Assembly (NCBI GenBank): GCA_964393205.1
Contig: CAYMSV010000002.1
Coordinates: 28,078 to 92,077, forward strand
DNA from: an uncultured Pseudomonadales bacterium
Lineage (GTDB): Bacteria > Patescibacteriota > Microgenomatia > UBA1400 > PJMF01
Length of the DNA stretch: 64,000 nucleotides
Direction of reading: 5' to 3'
The notes below the pieces were generated by a model, which was not told the origin of the DNA, did no database searches, and saw only the letters and a list, made by a program, of their open reading frames with translations. Below, piece by piece: positions 36,741 through 60,333 of this stretch. Both the position numbers and the translations under genes were made by a program. Every line of letters starts with the position of its first letter. Position 1 is the stretch's first letter.

Positions 36741-38231
36741 TTAATCTTCTTGAGTATAAGCAATTACTAAATCGCCCACCCCAAAATCTAATTTTTTGTT
36801 TTTAAAAGTCAAGCCAGCCTCGTTTTTAGTTTTAACCACTTTAATCTCTTCTTTACCATGCATCATTTTTTTAATCACTGGATTAGCGATGATCTCTTCA
36901 GCGCGTTTAAGATGTAGCAAATCATTTTGTTTGATTTCACCAGTCTTAACCCTCACTCCAGCAATTCGCTCACCCTTCATCTCGAAAACTTCTAAAATCT
37001 CTGCCTCTCCAGTCACTACTTCATCTATAGTTGAATCCATTAGTTTTAACATTTGTTTCTGTAAGTCTTCAATTAAATGATGAATTACATCATATTCTTT
37101 GATTTTTGCTCCCAATGTTTTTGCAATTTTTTTAGTTTTATTAGATACCTTAATATTGAAAGCAATTAACAACACTTTTTCACCAGTAGCTAATTCCAAA
37201 TCTTCTTCAGTAATCTGACCCACTCCACAACGCAAAACTTCAACGCTGTCTTTGTCTAAACTCTGTAAAATGGCTTCAAGGGTACCCTTAACATCTGCCT
37301 TTACAATTAATTTAATTTTTTCTTTTTGGCCCAAAATATAATCTAAATCTAATTTATCCCAATCGACGTTTTCTTCAGCACTAGTAAAACTTTTTTCTAA
37401 GTCTCCAGTTTGGCTAAAATCACTCTCGGCAACTGCACTATAATCAATGCCTGCTTCTCTCACAATTTCACCCACTTCTGGAACTTCTTTTAAACCAATA
37501 ATTTCTGTAGGTGAACCAGGTAAAACTTCTTCTAAAAGCTCTCCCTTTTCATTGATTAAACCACGCACTTTACCAGCAATATCTCCAACCAATAAATCTT
37601 GACGGATTTTTAAACTTCCTTGTTTAACGACAACTCTTGCTACTGGACCCTTATTTTTATCCTTAGTTGACTCAATAACTACTGCTTCAAGAGGTGCACT
37701 GAGATCAGCTTTGAGTTCCAATAAATCAGTTAAAAGAATAATAGTTTCCAAAAGCTTATCAACTCCCTTGCCTGTCTTGGCAGAAATTTCTACCACCTCC
37801 ACATCGCCACCATATTCCTGAACTAAAAGTTCATGCTCAGCTAATTGACTCTTAACATTGTCTGGACGGACATCTGGTAAATCAATTTTGTTAATAGCTA
37901 CTAATACTGGCACTTTTGCTTCTTTAATGTGACGAATAGACTCTATAGTTTGAGGCTTAACACCATCATTAGCTGCCACCACCAAAACCACCAAGTCAGT
38001 TACTTGAGCTCCTCGTTGGCGCATTTTATTGAAAGCTGCATGACCAGGAGTATCAATAAAAGTAATTTTCTGATCTTTAAAATCAATTTGATAAGCCCCA
38101 ATGTGCTGAGTCATTCCTCCAGCCTCACCAGCCTGAATTCTACTTTGACGAATATAATCCAACAATGTAGTTTTACCGTGGTCAACATGACCCATGATTG
38201 TGATAACTGGACAGCGTTTAATTAAAGCCAT
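36741..38231 (-). CDS. infB: Translation initiation factor IF-2, short form (G domain at the extreme N-terminus)
   Basis: PVITIMGHVDHGKTTLLD (G1), DTPGH (G3), NKID (G4), then IF2 domains C1/C2. Only 496 aa; no N-terminal region. Confidence 0.9.
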   Translation of the reverse strand: MALIKRCPVITIMGHVDHGKTTLLDYIRQSRIQAGEAGGMTQHIGAYQIDFKDQKITFIDTPGHAAFNKMRQRGAQVTDLVVLVVAANDGVKPQTIESIRHIKEAKVPVLVAINKIDLPDVRPDNVKSQLAEHELLVQEYGGDVEVVEISAKTGKGVDKLLETIILLTDLLELKADLSAPLEAVVIESTKDKNKGPVARVVVKQGSLKIRQDLLVGDIAGKVRGLINEKGELLEEVLPGSPTEIIGLKEVPEVGEIVREAGIDYSAVAESDFSQTGDLEKSFTSAEENVDWDKLDLDYILGQKEKIKLIVKADVKGTLEAILQSLDKDSVEVLRCGVGQITEEDLELATGEKVLLIAFNIKVSNKTKKIAKTLGAKIKEYDVIHHLIEDLQKQMLKLMDSTIDEVVTGEAEILEVFEMKGERIAGVRVKTGEIKQNDLLHLKRAEEIIANPVIKKMMHGKEEIKVVKTKNEAGLTFKNKKLDFGVGDLVIAYTQED

Positions 38232-55830: not shown

Positions 55831-56256
55831 TTAACCATCTATGACTTGTTTATCATAAAAAATCGTATTCATCAATGAAATTGCCTTTTTCAACTCTTCA
55901 GCTAAATCCAAAGAAAGCTTAGAATTATCATTGCCACCTCTAAGAGCAATTAGAGACAAGTTGGAATCATGAATAATTAATTGAGTTAATTGAGTAAAAA
56001 GCTGTTGGTTGCTACTTAACCACCTATTTCTCTCTTTTTCCGTTTTCAGTGAAACGTTTTCTAAAAAATCCGTTAATCTTTTCAGTTCAAAAATTTTAAG
56101 TTGTAGAGTAAATTCTAGCTGATTGTGGTCGATAATATCTTCAAATTGATGACTAATTGATAAAGGGCTCAGTTCATCATCAAAATCTTCTTCGTCTAAT
56201 TGATAACGTAATTTAATTTCATTTAATAAATCTTGTAAATTATCGTTTTTTGCCAT
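55831..56256 (-). CDS. Hypothetical protein
   Basis: 141-aa acidic, coiled-coil-like ORF. No motif. Confidence 0.4.
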   Translation of the reverse strand: MAKNDNLQDLLNEIKLRYQLDEEDFDDELSPLSISHQFEDIIDHNQLEFTLQLKIFELKRLTDFLENVSLKTEKERNRWLSSNQQLFTQLTQLIIHDSNLSLIALRGGNDNSKLSLDLAEELKKAISLMNTIFYDKQVIDG

Positions 56257-56305
56257 ATTTCAGGTTATAATATCCACCTTAAGAAGCATTATCATACAAG
56301 AGAGC

Positions 56306-57397
56306 ATGAAAATTTTAAAGCTTAATTTAACACAAAATAGTGAGAAAAAAATCAAGGATTGTATTGGTCTAGTTATTAGTACTATCAAAGCCGGTGGTTT
56401 AGTGATTTACCCAACTGAAACCACTTATGGTATTGGTGCTGATCCTGAAAACAAACAGGCCATAGATAAATTATTAAAATATAAAAGTCGCCGAGAAGGT
56501 AAGCCTCTATCTGTCGCTGTTAGCGATCAAAAAATGGCTGAGCGCTATGTCTTGATTAACCAACAAGCACAAAATTTTTATCAACGTTTTTTGCCAGGAC
56601 CATATACCGTCATCTCTAATTTAAAAAGCAATAGTCAAATTGATCAACGAGTAGCCAGTGAGTTTAATACTCTAGGAATTCGCATCCCCGACTACCCATT
56701 AATTTTAAAAATCCTCAATCAATTAGATCGAGGGATAACAGCCACTAGTGCCAACGCTTCAGATAAAAAACGCCCTTATCAAATCAGTGACATTTTAGAT
56801 AATCTCAGTGAAAAACAAAAAAGCTTAATTGACTTAATTGTTGATGTTGGTGAGCTACCCAGAAATGAACCGTCTGTGGTGATTGATACAACTCTTTCAA
56901 CACCAATTGCTTTGCGTGGCCAATTAAAAAAAACAGATAATTTCATTGAGTTTAAATCTAAAAGCGAAACTGAAACTCAAGAATTAGCCAAGCGTTTAAT
57001 GCTAAAAAATTGGAAAAGCTTAAAAAAACGGGGGCTAATTTTTGGCTTAAATGGCGAACTAGGCATGGGAAAAACTATTTTTGCTAAAGGGGTAGCTCAA
57101 TTCTTACAAATAGAAGAAGAAATTACTTCCCCAACCTACAGCTATCTTAATGAGTACAGTTACGAACGACAAGCTTGTACGGGATTTTTTTACCATCTAG
57201 ATGCTTGGAAAATTGATCAAAAAGAAGAGTTTCTATTATTAGAAGTTGAAAAGTTGTTATCAGCCCACAACGTCTTAGTGATCGAATGGTGGGATAAAAT
57301 AGCTGGTTTTTTGACAGAAGATTTTAAACAACAAGCAATCATCTTAGAATTGAGTGGACAAGATAATTGGCGAACGATTAAATTATGGGAAAAGTAA
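56306..57397 (+). CDS. Fused t6A-synthesis protein: TsaC/YrdC domain (N) + TsaE/YjeE P-loop domain (C)
   Basis: N-terminal YPTETTYGIGAD (YrdC/Sua5 signature) and SANASDK. C-terminal FGLNGELGMGKTIFAKGVA (TsaE Walker A) and SPTYSYLNEY (SPTF-type motif). Confidence 0.75.
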   Translation: MKILKLNLTQNSEKKIKDCIGLVISTIKAGGLVIYPTETTYGIGADPENKQAIDKLLKYKSRREGKPLSVAVSDQKMAERYVLINQQAQNFYQRFLPGPYTVISNLKSNSQIDQRVASEFNTLGIRIPDYPLILKILNQLDRGITATSANASDKKRPYQISDILDNLSEKQKSLIDLIVDVGELPRNEPSVVIDTTLSTPIALRGQLKKTDNFIEFKSKSETETQELAKRLMLKNWKSLKKRGLIFGLNGELGMGKTIFAKGVAQFLQIEEEITSPTYSYLNEYSYERQACTGFFYHLDAWKIDQKEEFLLLEVEKLLSAHNVLVIEWWDKIAGFLTEDFKQQAIILELSGQDNWRTIKLWEK

Positions 57398-58563
57398 AAA
57401 AAATAATTCTAGCTATCGATACCAGTTGTGATGATACTAGTGTAGCTGTAGTTCAAGGAACTCAAGTTTTAGCTAATATAGTTGCTTCACAAGCAATAAT
57501 TCACCAACAATATGGGGGTGTTTTTCCTACTCTGGCTAAACAAGCTCATCAAGAAAATATTGAAGCTTGTGTCAATTTAGCACTAAAAAGAGCTGGTCTG
57601 ATTAAAAACAAAAAGATTAATTATCAAAAACTATCAGCTTTAGCTGTTACTATTGGCCCCGGTTTAGCTCCAGCGCTAGAAGTTGGCATCCAACATGCTA
57701 AAAAATTAGCAAAATTATGGAATTTACCAATCATTACTGTCAATCATATAGAGGCACATGCTCTATCCCCCTTACTTGTTCCAAAAAACAATGATCAAAG
57801 AAGAAAAATTAATTTTCCAGTTTTAGCTATAGTCATTTCTGGAGGTCATAGTGAATTTATTTTAATTGAAGACATTGGTCAGTATCAGCGCTTGGGTTGG
57901 ACCGTTGACGATAGTGCTGGAGAATGCTTGGATAAGATTGGTCGCATGATCGATTTAGGCTATCCAGCTGGTCCAATTTTGGAAAAATTAGCTAAACAAG
58001 GAAATGCTGAGCGCTGGCAATTACCATTAGCCATGACAGCTGTTAGTAATTTTAATTTAAGTTTTTCTGGATTAAAAACAGCTGCCGGTCAACTCGTCAA
58101 TCAACTAAATAAAAATCAGGAATTAAATGCTCAGGCAGTTTGTGATTTGGCCGCCTGTGTTCAAAAACAAGTTTTTGCTCAAATTAATTATAAATTGGAG
58201 AAAATTCTACTAAGTTCAAATTTAGCAGAAAAAAAATATCCAAATGCTCAATTTTGCAAAAAAATTAAAAAAGGTGTAATAAAAGCACCCGTGACTAAAA
58301 TTAATGAAGTTTGGTTAGGAGGTGGAGTGAGTGCCAATATTGCTTTGCGTAGTAGCATTAGAAAAACTCTAAAAAACTATCAAAAATTATCTGGTAAAAA
58401 AATTAAACTTTACCTGCCCTATCACAAAAAATTTTGCGCTGATAATGCAGCCATGATTGGTCTAAGCGCGGGATTTTTAATTGATCGAAAAAAATCTAGT
58501 AATCCACAATCGCTAGATCGCCAACCAAATCTAAAAATCAATGACTTTTGTCAAGCGTGTTAA
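57385..58563 (+). CDS. tsaD: tRNA N6-adenosine threonylcarbamoyltransferase TsaD (Kae1/Gcp family)
   Basis: ILAIDTSCDDTSVAVV, HIEAHAL, GGVSAN. Overlaps the tsaC-tsaE fusion by 13 nt. Confidence 0.9.
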   Translation: MGKVKKIILAIDTSCDDTSVAVVQGTQVLANIVASQAIIHQQYGGVFPTLAKQAHQENIEACVNLALKRAGLIKNKKINYQKLSALAVTIGPGLAPALEVGIQHAKKLAKLWNLPIITVNHIEAHALSPLLVPKNNDQRRKINFPVLAIVISGGHSEFILIEDIGQYQRLGWTVDDSAGECLDKIGRMIDLGYPAGPILEKLAKQGNAERWQLPLAMTAVSNFNLSFSGLKTAAGQLVNQLNKNQELNAQAVCDLAACVQKQVFAQINYKLEKILLSSNLAEKKYPNAQFCKKIKKGVIKAPVTKINEVWLGGGVSANIALRSSIRKTLKNYQKLSGKKIKLYLPYHKKFCADNAAMIGLSAGFLIDRKKSSNPQSLDRQPNLKINDFCQAC

Positions 58564-58572
58564 AATAAGACA

Positions 58573-60333
58573 GTGCAAGAACTTGTCTTGTCACCTCTAC
58601 TTTCAAAATCTCAAGCCCACCATTTTGTGGCTTTTCTCAACAATCGCCAAGAAAACTTAATCATTGCCTTTAGTCTTGAGGGGCCAGACGCTCATTTTTT
58701 TGGTAAAGACCTACAACTAAAAATGGCTAATTGGCAGTTTAAAAAAGCCCAAGAGCTTCATCTAGCTCTACTAGATCTTAATAAAGAATGTCGTCTAAGA
58801 AAATTACAATTAAGTTTTGCCATTACTCTAAAAATCGATCAGCAATTAATTTTAAGCTGTCAGGGTGGTAGCATCCTGCTCAAACGTCAAAATCAAGTTA
58901 AAGAATTACTTGCTAGTCAAGCTGAAATTCTCATGTTAGTGGGGCAATATTTTGAAGGTGATCAGTTGCTACTAATAGCCGGAAATTTAGAACTAGGTCA
59001 AGTAATTGTCGAAAAAAGTCGTAGTCAAACTCTAAAAACAATTCTTGAACAAAAGCTAGATGATTATTTAAATAAAAATTCAAATACAGCTCTTGTTTTG
59101 TGGCATTTTCAAAAAAAAGAAAAAATTATTTGGAGAAAAAAATTAATTAATATTAAAAATTATTTAAGAAAAATTAAAAAATTCTTTAAAAAAATTCCTT
59201 TGTGGTGGAAAAAAATTAAAAATCTTAGACAAGAGCAAAAAAAATATTATCAAAAATTATTTATCACTATTTTTTTCATTATTTTTTTAACAATTGGTTT
59301 TTTAGTACTCGGACAACGACAACAAGAAAAAACACTAGATAGAGTTAATAAAGAAGTTTCGGCACTGGTTCTCAATGAACAAGAATTGGAAACACTTAGC
59401 ACTACTCAACCAGTCTTAGCCAGAGAAAAAATCGATCAGAGTCAACAAGATTTAAACGAACTTTTGAATAATACTAACTCTCTTGCTGCTAAAAAATATA
59501 TTGAACAAGAGATAAATAGATTGAATTTACAGTCAGAAAAATTAGCTAGTGAAAATAGCCTTGATCGTTTGCTTATCTATAGCAATTGGTATGATGATTA
59601 TCCAGATTTTTTAGGAACTAAGCTAATTGCTAGCGAACATGGTATTTTGATAGCCAATGACCAACAAAACCAACTCTTATTAATAAAAGAAAAAAATATT
59701 TTTGATATTTGGGACATCAATTATCAAGATTTTACACTTGATCAAAGTCGCTCTGAACAATTAGGAGTCTTCATAAAAGACCAAGGTGTCAAATACCTAG
59801 ATTGGCAAAATAAAACAGTTACAGAGCTTAAATCTGAAGGTGACTCAGATAGAGATGGACAATTACTAGAAAGTTACCAAAATTACCTTTATTTATTAAA
59901 CCCAGAAAAACGCAATATTTATCGCTATACCTTGAGAAATGAGGAACTCAGTGAAGCAATCGGCTGGTTAGTCGAAAAACAAGGTATAAGTTTTAATAAT
60001 GTCAGTGATATGAGTGTTGATGGCAACTTATGGTTAAGTTTTAAAGATGGAAACGTCCTGAAATTTGATCGAGGCTATCAAGAAGAATTTAGCTTAACTG
60101 GGCTTAATCAAGTTCCAGATGACACCTTACTTATGGCAAGTAGAGAAAATTCAGAAAAATTAGTCTTCTTAGACAAGAGCAATAGACGTTTAATCCTTAC
60201 TACCAGAGACGGTCAATTAATTAATGAAATAAAAAGCAATGAGCTGGCTGGAGTCAGCGATATCACTTTAGCAATTGATGGAGAAAGTTGTTTTGCCTTA
60301 AGTGGATCAGTCATTTATCAAATCCAGCTTTAA
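58573..60333 (+). CDS. Hypothetical membrane protein (N-terminal cytoplasmic domain, Lys-rich linker, one TM, large C-terminal extracytoplasmic domain)
   Basis: 586 aa. TM helix LFITIFFIIFLTIGFLVLG near the middle. No catalytic motif. Confidence 0.45.
   Translation: MQELVLSPLLSKSQAHHFVAFLNNRQENLIIAFSLEGPDAHFFGKDLQLKMANWQFKKAQELHLALLDLNKECRLRKLQLSFAITLKIDQQLILSCQGGSILLKRQNQVKELLASQAEILMLVGQYFEGDQLLLIAGNLELGQVIVEKSRSQTLKTILEQKLDDYLNKNSNTALVLWHFQKKEKIIWRKKLINIKNYLRKIKKFFKKIPLWWKKIKNLRQEQKKYYQKLFITIFFIIFLTIGFLVLGQRQQEKTLDRVNKEVSALVLNEQELETLSTTQPVLAREKIDQSQQDLNELLNNTNSLAAKKYIEQEINRLNLQSEKLASENSLDRLLIYSNWYDDYPDFLGTKLIASEHGILIANDQQNQLLLIKEKNIFDIWDINYQDFTLDQSRSEQLGVFIKDQGVKYLDWQNKTVTELKSEGDSDRDGQLLESYQNYLYLLNPEKRNIYRYTLRNEELSEAIGWLVEKQGISFNNVSDMSVDGNLWLSFKDGNVLKFDRGYQEEFSLTGLNQVPDDTLLMASRENSEKLVFLDKSNRRLILTTRDGQLINEIKSNELAGVSDITLAIDGESCFALSGSVIYQIQL

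Follow-up and report, generated by a model that had tools for sequence, protein, structure and literature searches.

A TsaC-TsaE fusion protein encoded next to tsaD in several classes of Patescibacteria

Two questions stand open in the bacterial synthesis of N6-threonylcarbamoyladenosine (t6A), a universal modification of tRNA: how the labile intermediate threonylcarbamoyl-AMP (TC-AMP) reaches the transferase TsaD, and what part TsaC, the TC-AMP synthase, has in the reset of TsaD that is driven by the ATPase TsaE. A locus on contig CAYMSV010000002.1 (assembly GCA_964393205.1) bears on both. There, within the 64,000-nucleotide stretch analyzed here (the window), a preliminary description had read TsaC and TsaE in a single open reading frame (ORF), with tsaD overlapping its end and no tsaB nearby. 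Is the joined protein real, how widely does it occur, and what would joining the two domains achieve? The features concerned, in window coordinates, are the following.

56306..57397, plus strand: TsaC-TsaE fusion ORF, 363 amino acids (aa), ATG start, no internal stop
56306..56917, plus strand: TsaC (YrdC-type threonylcarbamoyl-AMP synthase) domain, aa 1-204, PF01300 and TIGR00057
56918..56959, plus strand: inter-domain spacer, aa 205-218 (QLKKTDNFIEFKSK), about 14 aa, between the two Pfam envelopes
56960..57397, plus strand: TsaE (YjeE) domain, a P-loop ATPase, aa 219-363 and stop codon, PF02367 and TIGR00150
57385..57397, plus strand: overlap of the fusion gene and tsaD, 13 nt, ATGGGAAAAGTAA
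57385..58563, plus strand: tsaD (tRNA N6-adenosine threonylcarbamoyltransferase), 392 aa, TIGR03723 (309.9 bits versus a cut-off of 296.1)

TsaC and TsaE are joined in one protein. The other two frames of 56306..57397 hold 38 and 42 stops. Pfam places PF01300 (Sua5_yciO_yrdC) on aa 26 to 204 (E 3.3e-44; 150.9 bits versus a cut-off of 25.1) and PF02367 (TsaE) on aa 219 to 348 (E 1.2e-25; 90.4 bits versus 26.6). The NCBIfam models TIGR00057 (L-threonylcarbamoyladenylate synthase; 158.6 bits versus 123.2) and TIGR00150 (T6A_YjeE; 75 bits versus 60.1) agree, and the motifs first quoted from the ORF, YPTETTYGIGAD, GELGMGKT, and SPTY, were all found in it. TsaE is here the C-terminal domain of a 363-aa protein and not a single-domain protein of about 150 aa. 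PF00814 is absent from the fusion ORF, TsaD being a separate, overlapping ORF. Moreover, contigs assembled independently (JGI, ENA, and Logan), at least 24 in number and up to 311 kb long, carry the identical 363-aa protein. We conclude that the fusion is a true single-polypeptide TsaC-TsaE protein.

The N-terminal half has the catalytic residues of a TsaC. Its KRSN tetrad is intact (K60-x-R62 ... S148-x-N150), and aligns with that of solved TsaC/Sua5 proteins; when 20 and 91 fusions were aligned, its residues proved either invariant or conserved to at least 90%. Because the tetrad separates TsaC from its non-isofunctional paralog YciO (PMC4615747), a YciO in place of TsaC is ruled out. Among PDB sequences this half matches MTH1692 (3.5e-27) and T. 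maritima TsaC2 (5.6e-26). When PDB folds were searched by Foldseek with an AlphaFold2 (AF2) model, it matched YrdC, YciO, and the Sua5 N-domain at TM-scores (TMt) of 0.79 to 0.86, including E. coli YrdC (1hru, 0.79) and YciO (1k7j, 0.86). The domain would, by these residues, make TC-AMP from threonine, bicarbonate, and ATP.

The C-terminal half keeps the motifs of a TsaE. In the same fusion alignments, Walker A (G250-x-LG-x-GK256T257) is conserved at G250, G253, G255, K256, and T257, Switch I (S275PTY278) is conserved, Switch II (H297-x-D299-x-W301K302) is conserved at H297, D299, W301, and K302, and E327W328 is conserved. Mutation of T. maritima TsaE at T42, S61, T63, F64, D80, Y82, R83, or E108 abolishes ATPase activity or multi-turnover t6A synthesis (PMC6614819). 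To these positions, in chain 6n9a_E, the fusion residues T257, S275, T277, Y278, D299, W301, K302, and E327 align in that order with conservative changes only, and every mutagenesis-tested TsaE residue is kept in the fusion and across 91 diverged fusions. The fold matches of this half are likewise to TsaE, with HI0065 (1htw) at TMt 0.80 and a root-mean-square deviation (rmsd) of 2.1 Å, and 6n9a_E at TMt 0.69.

How widely the fusion occurs decides whether it is a curiosity of one genome. The preliminary description called it an unusual arrangement of the t6A pathway, which holds in that it is undescribed in the t6A literature searched; it is not, however, peculiar to one genome but common in Patescibacteria. 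All 120 of the best database matches listed for the fusion protein carry PF01300 and PF02367, at 94% to 53% identity and about 350 to 385 aa. A second profile, built from the most divergent fusions (35 to 48% identical to the window protein), gave 5,238 matches at E ≤ 1e-10 among 8,000 candidates scored, and the further 120 best clusters listed for it all have both domains, down to about 35% identity; the 240 listed in total are 90%-identity clusters. At related loci from species-representative genomes and metagenomes, both domains lie in one ORF in 98 of 99 cases, the exception being cut by the end of its contig. Finally, a search with the TsaE domain alone covered 1.84 billion 50%-identity representatives exhaustively, and among the best 150 there were 39 of at least 350 aa whose TsaE match starts after about residue 195, fusion status being inferred for most of these 39 from protein size and match position only. 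Source names include the Patescibacteria group, Candidatus Pacebacteria, Woesebacteria, Beckwithbacteria, Dojkabacteria, Paceibacteria/Paceibacterota, and Saccharimonadia. Judged by these sequences, the fusion is a common state across several Patescibacteria classes. In viral contigs scanned with TsaB and fusion profiles, only giant-virus TsaC-like genes were found.

We note that some species-representative metagenome-assembled genomes bear titles such as "uncultured Pseudomonadales," "Vitreimonas sp.," "Gammaproteobacteria," and "Clostridia bacterium" on contigs with the gene content and synteny of the Candidate Phyla Radiation (CPR). Such mismatched titles occur in our loci L001, L003, L004, L006, L012, L015, and others, and the labels look wrong.

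The partner of both domains is encoded next door. The 13-nt overlap of tsaD with the fusion gene is exactly as first described, and the tsaD start lies within ...AAATTATGGGAAAAGTAA at the fusion 3' end. Thus, tsaD is probably translationally coupled to the fusion gene, and because of the overlap the fusion protein and TsaD are probably made together in matched amounts. Of the loci whose sequence extends far enough past the fusion, 51 of 53 from metagenomes and 14 of 16 from genomes have tsaD immediately after it; measured from stop to stop, the gap between the frames runs from about -109 to +31 nt for most of those 51, with an overlap or a few nucleotides being usual. The window TsaD matches PF00814 (5.8e-66), has the HxxxH metal site, and finds its best PDB matches in bacterial TsaDs (8iey, 2.6e-56; E. 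coli and T. maritima, about 1e-50 to 1e-53), the match to Qri7 being far weaker (4e-30). At 392 aa it is longer than solved bacterial TsaDs (about 330 to 345 aa), with an insert of about 30 aa in the C-terminal half near aa 274 to 302; the TsaD of L199, an unfused relative discussed below, is likewise 392 aa long.

The two domains are predicted to form one compact unit. An AF2 model of the fusion, built on the 91-sequence fusion alignment, has a mean predicted local distance difference test score (pLDDT) of 92.4 and a predicted TM-score (pTM) of 0.85, and the spacer, at pLDDT 74 to 84, is not predicted to be disordered. The model is thus a confident, compact two-domain prediction with an ordered spacer. 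Across 98 related fusions, the spacer at this position is 12 to 39 aa long, with a median of about 16. The top whole-chain fold matches are T. maritima TsaC2 and P. abyssi Sua5, with superposition of the whole chain on Sua5 giving an rmsd of 13 to 15 Å and the N-domain alone fitting. No solved chain with both TsaC and TsaE domains was found among the PDB sequence and fold matches. Fusion variants of 434 to 444 aa also exist (P0138, P0133, and P0143); in P0138 the linker that separates the domains is a low-complexity one of about 110 aa, and P0133 and P0143 have large inserts within the TsaC domain.

How might a joined TsaC-TsaE serve t6A synthesis? In the established cycle, TsaC makes TC-AMP and TsaD, for which TsaB is the platform, passes the threonylcarbamoyl group on to A37; TsaE, together with ATP, binds where TsaB and TsaD meet, competing with tRNA, and hydrolysis of the ATP then resets TsaD for another turnover (Missoury 2018, Luthra 2019). 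It was proposed that TsaD accepts TC-AMP from TsaC while TsaE is bound to it; a complex of all four proteins was seen by gel shift only, and no stable one could be isolated (Missoury 2018). The role of TsaC in the reset step was listed as an open question (Luthra 2019), and a TsaC-TsaD interaction for TC-AMP delivery was called a tempting hypothesis in a 2022 review. We propose, with a probability of roughly 0.7, that the fusion is a bifunctional t6A protein in which the TC-AMP synthase is brought to TsaD whenever TsaE docks. Labile TC-AMP would be made by the N-terminal domain, and the C-terminal domain would dock on TsaD, where ATP hydrolysis would reset it for another turnover. Because TsaE would dock at the mouth of the TsaD active site, in competition with tRNA, the tethered TsaC would place a source of TC-AMP beside TsaD at every reset. 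Reset and reloading would be coupled, the short-lived TC-AMP need not diffuse, and after ATP hydrolysis the fusion protein would depart and tRNA would bind.

The proposal draws on the domain identities, the retained catalytic residues, the retention of the fusion across Patescibacteria, the linkage to tsaD, and the compact model; that the protein is active as an enzyme, docks on TsaD, or hands over TC-AMP is what we infer. Substrate channeling or co-delivery by the fusion is plausible and matches the hypothesis of Missoury 2018.

The pathway and the components of this system are known; what appears to be undescribed is the architecture, together with its breadth and what it implies for the mechanism. 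Stand-alone TsaC (YrdC) and TsaE (YjeE) of the TsaBCDE systems of E. coli and T. maritima have the same folds, catalytic residues, and partner TsaD. In model bacteria, however, TsaC and TsaE are separate and form no stable TsaC-TsaBDE complex, whereas here they are one polypeptide; and the usual gene after tsaE elsewhere is tsaB (58 of 60 loci), whereas here tsaD follows and no tsaB was found nearby. Sua5/TsaC2 resembles the fusion in that its YrdC-type TC-AMP synthase is N-terminal and is followed, after a linker, by a similarly sized C-terminal domain, but the C-terminal domain of the fusion is the TsaE P-loop ATPase and gives no match to PF03481. The distinction from Sua5 drawn in the preliminary description is thus upheld by Pfam, which finds no SUA5 domain.

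TobZ, HypF, and Pandoravirus TsaN also tie an adenylate-forming YrdC module to transfer machinery, and the TobZ and HypF fusions form a channel for a labile adenylate; any channel in TsaC-TsaE would be conjectural. Those three proteins join YrdC to the transferase (Kae1/TsaD-like), whereas here it is joined to the accessory ATPase and TsaD is separate, though probably coupled in translation. Other "Rosetta-stone" fusions of t6A components or their neighbors, from which physical or functional association has been deduced, are known as well (YeaZ::RimI::YgjD, Alr::YjeE, hydrolase::YeaZ, Kae1-Bud32, and TsaC/HemK), but none joins TsaC to TsaE, and they come from Gram-positive bacteria, Archaea, and Mycoplasma, whereas TsaC-TsaE comes from Patescibacteria. 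Two cultivated CPR bacteria of the same superphylum are Southlakia epibionticum (Saccharibacteria) and strain OT8 (Microgenomatia), in which tsaE or tsaC adjoins tsaD and the accessory set is reduced; in these, however, TsaC (or Sua5) and TsaE are unfused, and a 130-aa mini-TsaB is present in Southlakia and none is annotated in OT8. The t6A literature searched held no description of the TsaC-TsaE architecture, the string "TsaE-TsaC" occurring only in a paper on archaeal KEOPS, as a text match, and nothing relevant that paired TsaB or t6A with CPR bacteria. Fusion proteins are nonetheless abundant in public databases, where they are named only as threonylcarbamoyl-AMP (L-threonylcarbamoyladenylate) synthase.

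What might the fusion reveal? A natural TsaC-TsaE protein, kept over a large part of the bacterial tree, is "Rosetta-stone" evidence that both domains act on TsaD at the same step. TsaC-TsaE and TsaD, as two proteins of one operon, would also be a ready-made reagent for cryo-electron microscopy and kinetic tests. Moreover, thousands of entries named "L-threonylcarbamoyladenylate synthase" hide a TsaE domain, and such genomes may be scored as lacking tsaE.

Fusion is not obligatory, because two relatives manage unfused: L199 and OT8, the latter with a separate Sua5. In L199 (1795-3500), the synteny is that of the window, with groEL, groES, and a small ORF followed divergently by TsaE and TsaD (392 aa), without a TsaC domain; its TsaE is a stand-alone protein of 175 aa with 47 nt of sequence upstream. 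L199 is therefore a natural unfused comparator in the same neighborhood.

These relatives, being of the same synteny or class, weigh against the proposal that the fusion reloads TsaD at each reset, and they are not alone in doing so. TobZ's TsaC-like module lies on the opposite side of the TsaD-like module from the TsaE site (Missoury 2018), and so a spacer of 12 to 20 aa may bar a TobZ-like channel while TsaE is docked. Linkers that run from 12 aa to about 110 aa, the latter being the low-complexity one of P0138, argue that a fixed geometry is not essential.

A simpler alternative is that the fusion brings economy and a set stoichiometry and nothing more. In a small genome that has few regulators, the joining of tsaC to tsaE-tsaD would secure co-expression, and each domain would work independently, as in other bacteria, with no kinetic coupling. 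Unfused relatives in the same neighborhood or class (L199, OT8, L019, and L194 to L198) are what such an explanation would lead one to expect, as are the variable linker and an apparently frame-split version in L200, and same-pathway gene fusions are common, YeaZ::RimI::YgjD and Alr::YjeE being known in t6A synthesis itself. However, the fusion persists to about 35% identity over several classes and thousands of clusters, which suggests an advantage beyond chance. The predicted unit is compact, with an ordered spacer and a pTM of 0.85. Moreover, TC-AMP is unstable, and the literature notes an unmet need for a delivery mechanism (Missoury 2018; the 2022 review). Economy alone is possible, but we doubt it.

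Whether these bacteria also dispense with TsaB is a separate question. That no tsaB lies nearby was borne out, as phmmer (with the window TsaD and an E. coli YeaZ sequence as queries), two hidden Markov models (HMMs; one of 54 TsaB sequences and one of the N-domain only), and hhalign of unannotated small ORFs found no TsaB-like ORF, full-length or N-domain only, in the 64-kb window, TsaD itself being the sole match. The hhalign positive control, the TsaD N-domain, scored 98.7% probability. The 141-aa ORF upstream and the 586-aa ORF downstream were rejected as cryptic TsaBs, both giving 0.1% against the TsaB N-domain by hhalign. No TsaB-like ORF was found in 115 related loci either, which amount to 1.41 Mb and lie entirely within about 10 kb of the fusion, and no mini-TsaB was found in the contexts of eight stand-alone or short TsaE representatives.

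Gene order elsewhere makes the lack conspicuous. In stand-alone-tsaE loci of other phyla, tsaB is present in 58 of 60, in the orders E-B-D (40), E-B (16), B-E-D (1), and E-B-C-D (1); the two loci without it have tsaE followed by tsaD (probably L019, labeled Saccharibacteria) and tsaE alone. The same scan found tsaB in none of 19 fusion loci. The closest stand-alone TsaEs, on CPR-like contigs (L019, L194 to L199, and L201), also adjoin tsaD and not tsaB. In the contexts of P0135, P0136, P0139, P0150, P0151, P0260, P0264, and P0355, TsaE or the fusion adjoins tsaD, sometimes with a HIT gene between, with the exception of L193, where the next gene is a 124-aa ORF that looks membrane-protein-like by eye.

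Two relatives show how such an absence should be read. In the complete genome of Southlakia epibionticum (Saccharibacteria), a 196-aa TsaC adjoins TsaD (PMC10633639, supplementary tables S1 and S2), and a 130-aa mini-TsaB, with a 196-aa TsaE beside it, is encoded at a distance of about 635 kb from tsaD. Pfam and KEGG orthology (KO) give no assignment for this mini-TsaB, which is recognized only by PGAP and by structure, and TsaC, TsaD, TsaE, and mini-TsaB are all non-essential by transposon sequencing (PMC10633639). OT8 is the first cultivated member of class Microgenomatia, to which the names on the nearest matches of the window protein point; its genome is a PacBio hybrid assembly, and its eggNOG table lists one COG0533 (TsaD), an adjacent COG0802 (TsaE), and one COG0009 (Sua5); the table, which holds eggNOG matches only, has no COG1214, yeaZ, K14742, or second Peptidase_M22 (bioRxiv 10.64898/2026.06.21.733656). 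Annotation of that type would also have missed the mini-TsaB of Southlakia. Because that mini-TsaB lies some 635 kb from tsaD and is unseen by Pfam and KO, the absence of a nearby tsaB is insufficient, and a TsaB-independent complex, as the preliminary description had suggested, does not follow from it.

Could TsaD nevertheless work with TsaC-TsaE alone? It might do so as a Qri7-like homodimer or with the TsaC domain replacing the contact that TsaB makes with TsaE. The empty window and 115 related loci, the contrast between 58 of 60 stand-alone and 0 of 19 fusion loci, the OT8 table, and the stand-alone CPR TsaEs that adjoin tsaD all point that way. The sampled DNA, however, lies within about 10 kb of the fusion and says little of the rest of each genome; Southlakia keeps its mini-TsaB next to TsaE, far from tsaD; and the OT8 table could miss such a protein. 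Moreover, the window TsaD is much closer to TsaB-dependent bacterial TsaDs than to Qri7, and TsaE contacts both TsaB and TsaD in solved complexes (Missoury 2018). A TsaB-less system seems to us somewhat unlikely. Thiaville et al. report bacteria in which TsaE, or both TsaB and TsaE, have been lost, and none that keeps TsaE without TsaB.

Loss of TsaB in class Microgenomatia is plausible, and that the fusion-bearing genomes truly lack it is a tentative suggestion that the odds do not favor. We speculate, at similarly long odds, that many Patescibacteria make t6A with two polypeptides, TsaC-TsaE and TsaD, and no TsaB; TsaD would then be a homodimer or use the TsaC domain as scaffold, and the TsaE cycle would deliver TC-AMP. 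If so, this would be the first bacterial system to keep the TsaE ATPase without the TsaB platform, and a new minimal bacterial t6A machinery. TsaB is a GTDB bac120 marker. Its true absence would bear on the use of TsaB in completeness estimates for these lineages.

The remaining alternatives concern the protein itself. That the C-terminal domain is some other P-loop NTPase is highly improbable: the weak secondary matches to NPHP3_N (E 7.8e-5, below its own cut-off) and PRK08116 are outweighed by TsaE models that score over their curated cut-offs, by PDB sequence and fold matches that are all TsaE, YjeE, YdiB, or HI0065, and by the conserved TsaE-specific SPT(F/Y) Switch I, D-x-(Y/W)-(R/K) Switch II, and E-W motifs, so that another family is refuted at the level of sequence and fold. 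Equally hard to credit is an artifact in which a frameshift from sequencing or assembly, or an overlooked stop codon, made one gene out of ordinary adjacent tsaC and tsaE; an A8 homopolymer does lie within the spacer at 56926 and the relative L200 is called as two overlapping genes, but we reject it because of the 24 or more independent contigs and the fusion kept in hundreds of clusters, the 240 diverged clusters listed and 98 of 99 loci having both domains in one ORF.

At L200:3872-4976 (GCA_021208155.1, JAJOJZ010000009.1), a 187-aa TsaC and a 199-aa "TsaE" overlap by 59 nt in different frames and are followed by tsaD. The 190- to 200-aa "TsaE" representatives P0135, P0136, P0167, P0194, P0260, and P0264 begin with the tail of a YrdC domain, and several short "TsaE" representatives are fragments of fusions or frame-split fusions, their N-termini being the last YrdC strands. 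L200 and the short YrdC-tailed TsaEs may be real fissions, sequencing frameshifts, or contig-end fragments.

The fusion gene and tsaD sit in a neighborhood that is partly kept in relatives. The further features are the following.

56257..56305, plus strand: region 5' of the fusion gene, 49 nt intergenic, shared with the divergent 141-aa ORF
55831..56256, minus strand: acidic ORF between groES and the fusion gene, divergent from the latter, 141 aa, no family match
58573..60333, plus strand: ORF beginning 9 nt after tsaD, 586 aa, no Pfam or NCBIfam match, hydrophobic segment at about aa 225-245

As read from the sequence, the intergenic region holds a TTATAAT box, and a Shine-Dalgarno-like AGAGAG stretch stands immediately before the fusion ATG; a promoter consensus scan gave 16 sites versus 19.4 expected and was uninformative. 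The gene order groEL, groES, small acidic ORF, and divergent fusion gene followed by tsaD recurs in relatives, and the 141-aa acidic ORF is kept at the same position in L001 to L004, L009, and L199. Of about 20 loci, only L001 and L002 have a homolog of the 586-aa ORF downstream of tsaD. No terminator-like site was found on the plus strand until after smpB (60949), and a terminator consensus scan was uninformative; the 586-aa ORF may be co-transcribed with the fusion gene and tsaD.

The locus also lies near a change in the organization of the window. GC skew is steadily negative over about the first 50 kb and, beyond about 56 kb, near zero or positive. Long ORFs are nearly all on the minus strand up to about 50 kb; beyond that point most lie on the plus strand. 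A replication origin or terminus may lie near the fusion locus, at the change between 50000 and 56000. Farther upstream (36741..38231, minus strand), translation initiation factor IF-2 is only 496 aa long, with its GTPase domain starting from residue 5. Many bacterial IF-2 proteins carry a long N-terminal region, which is absent from the IF-2 of the window.

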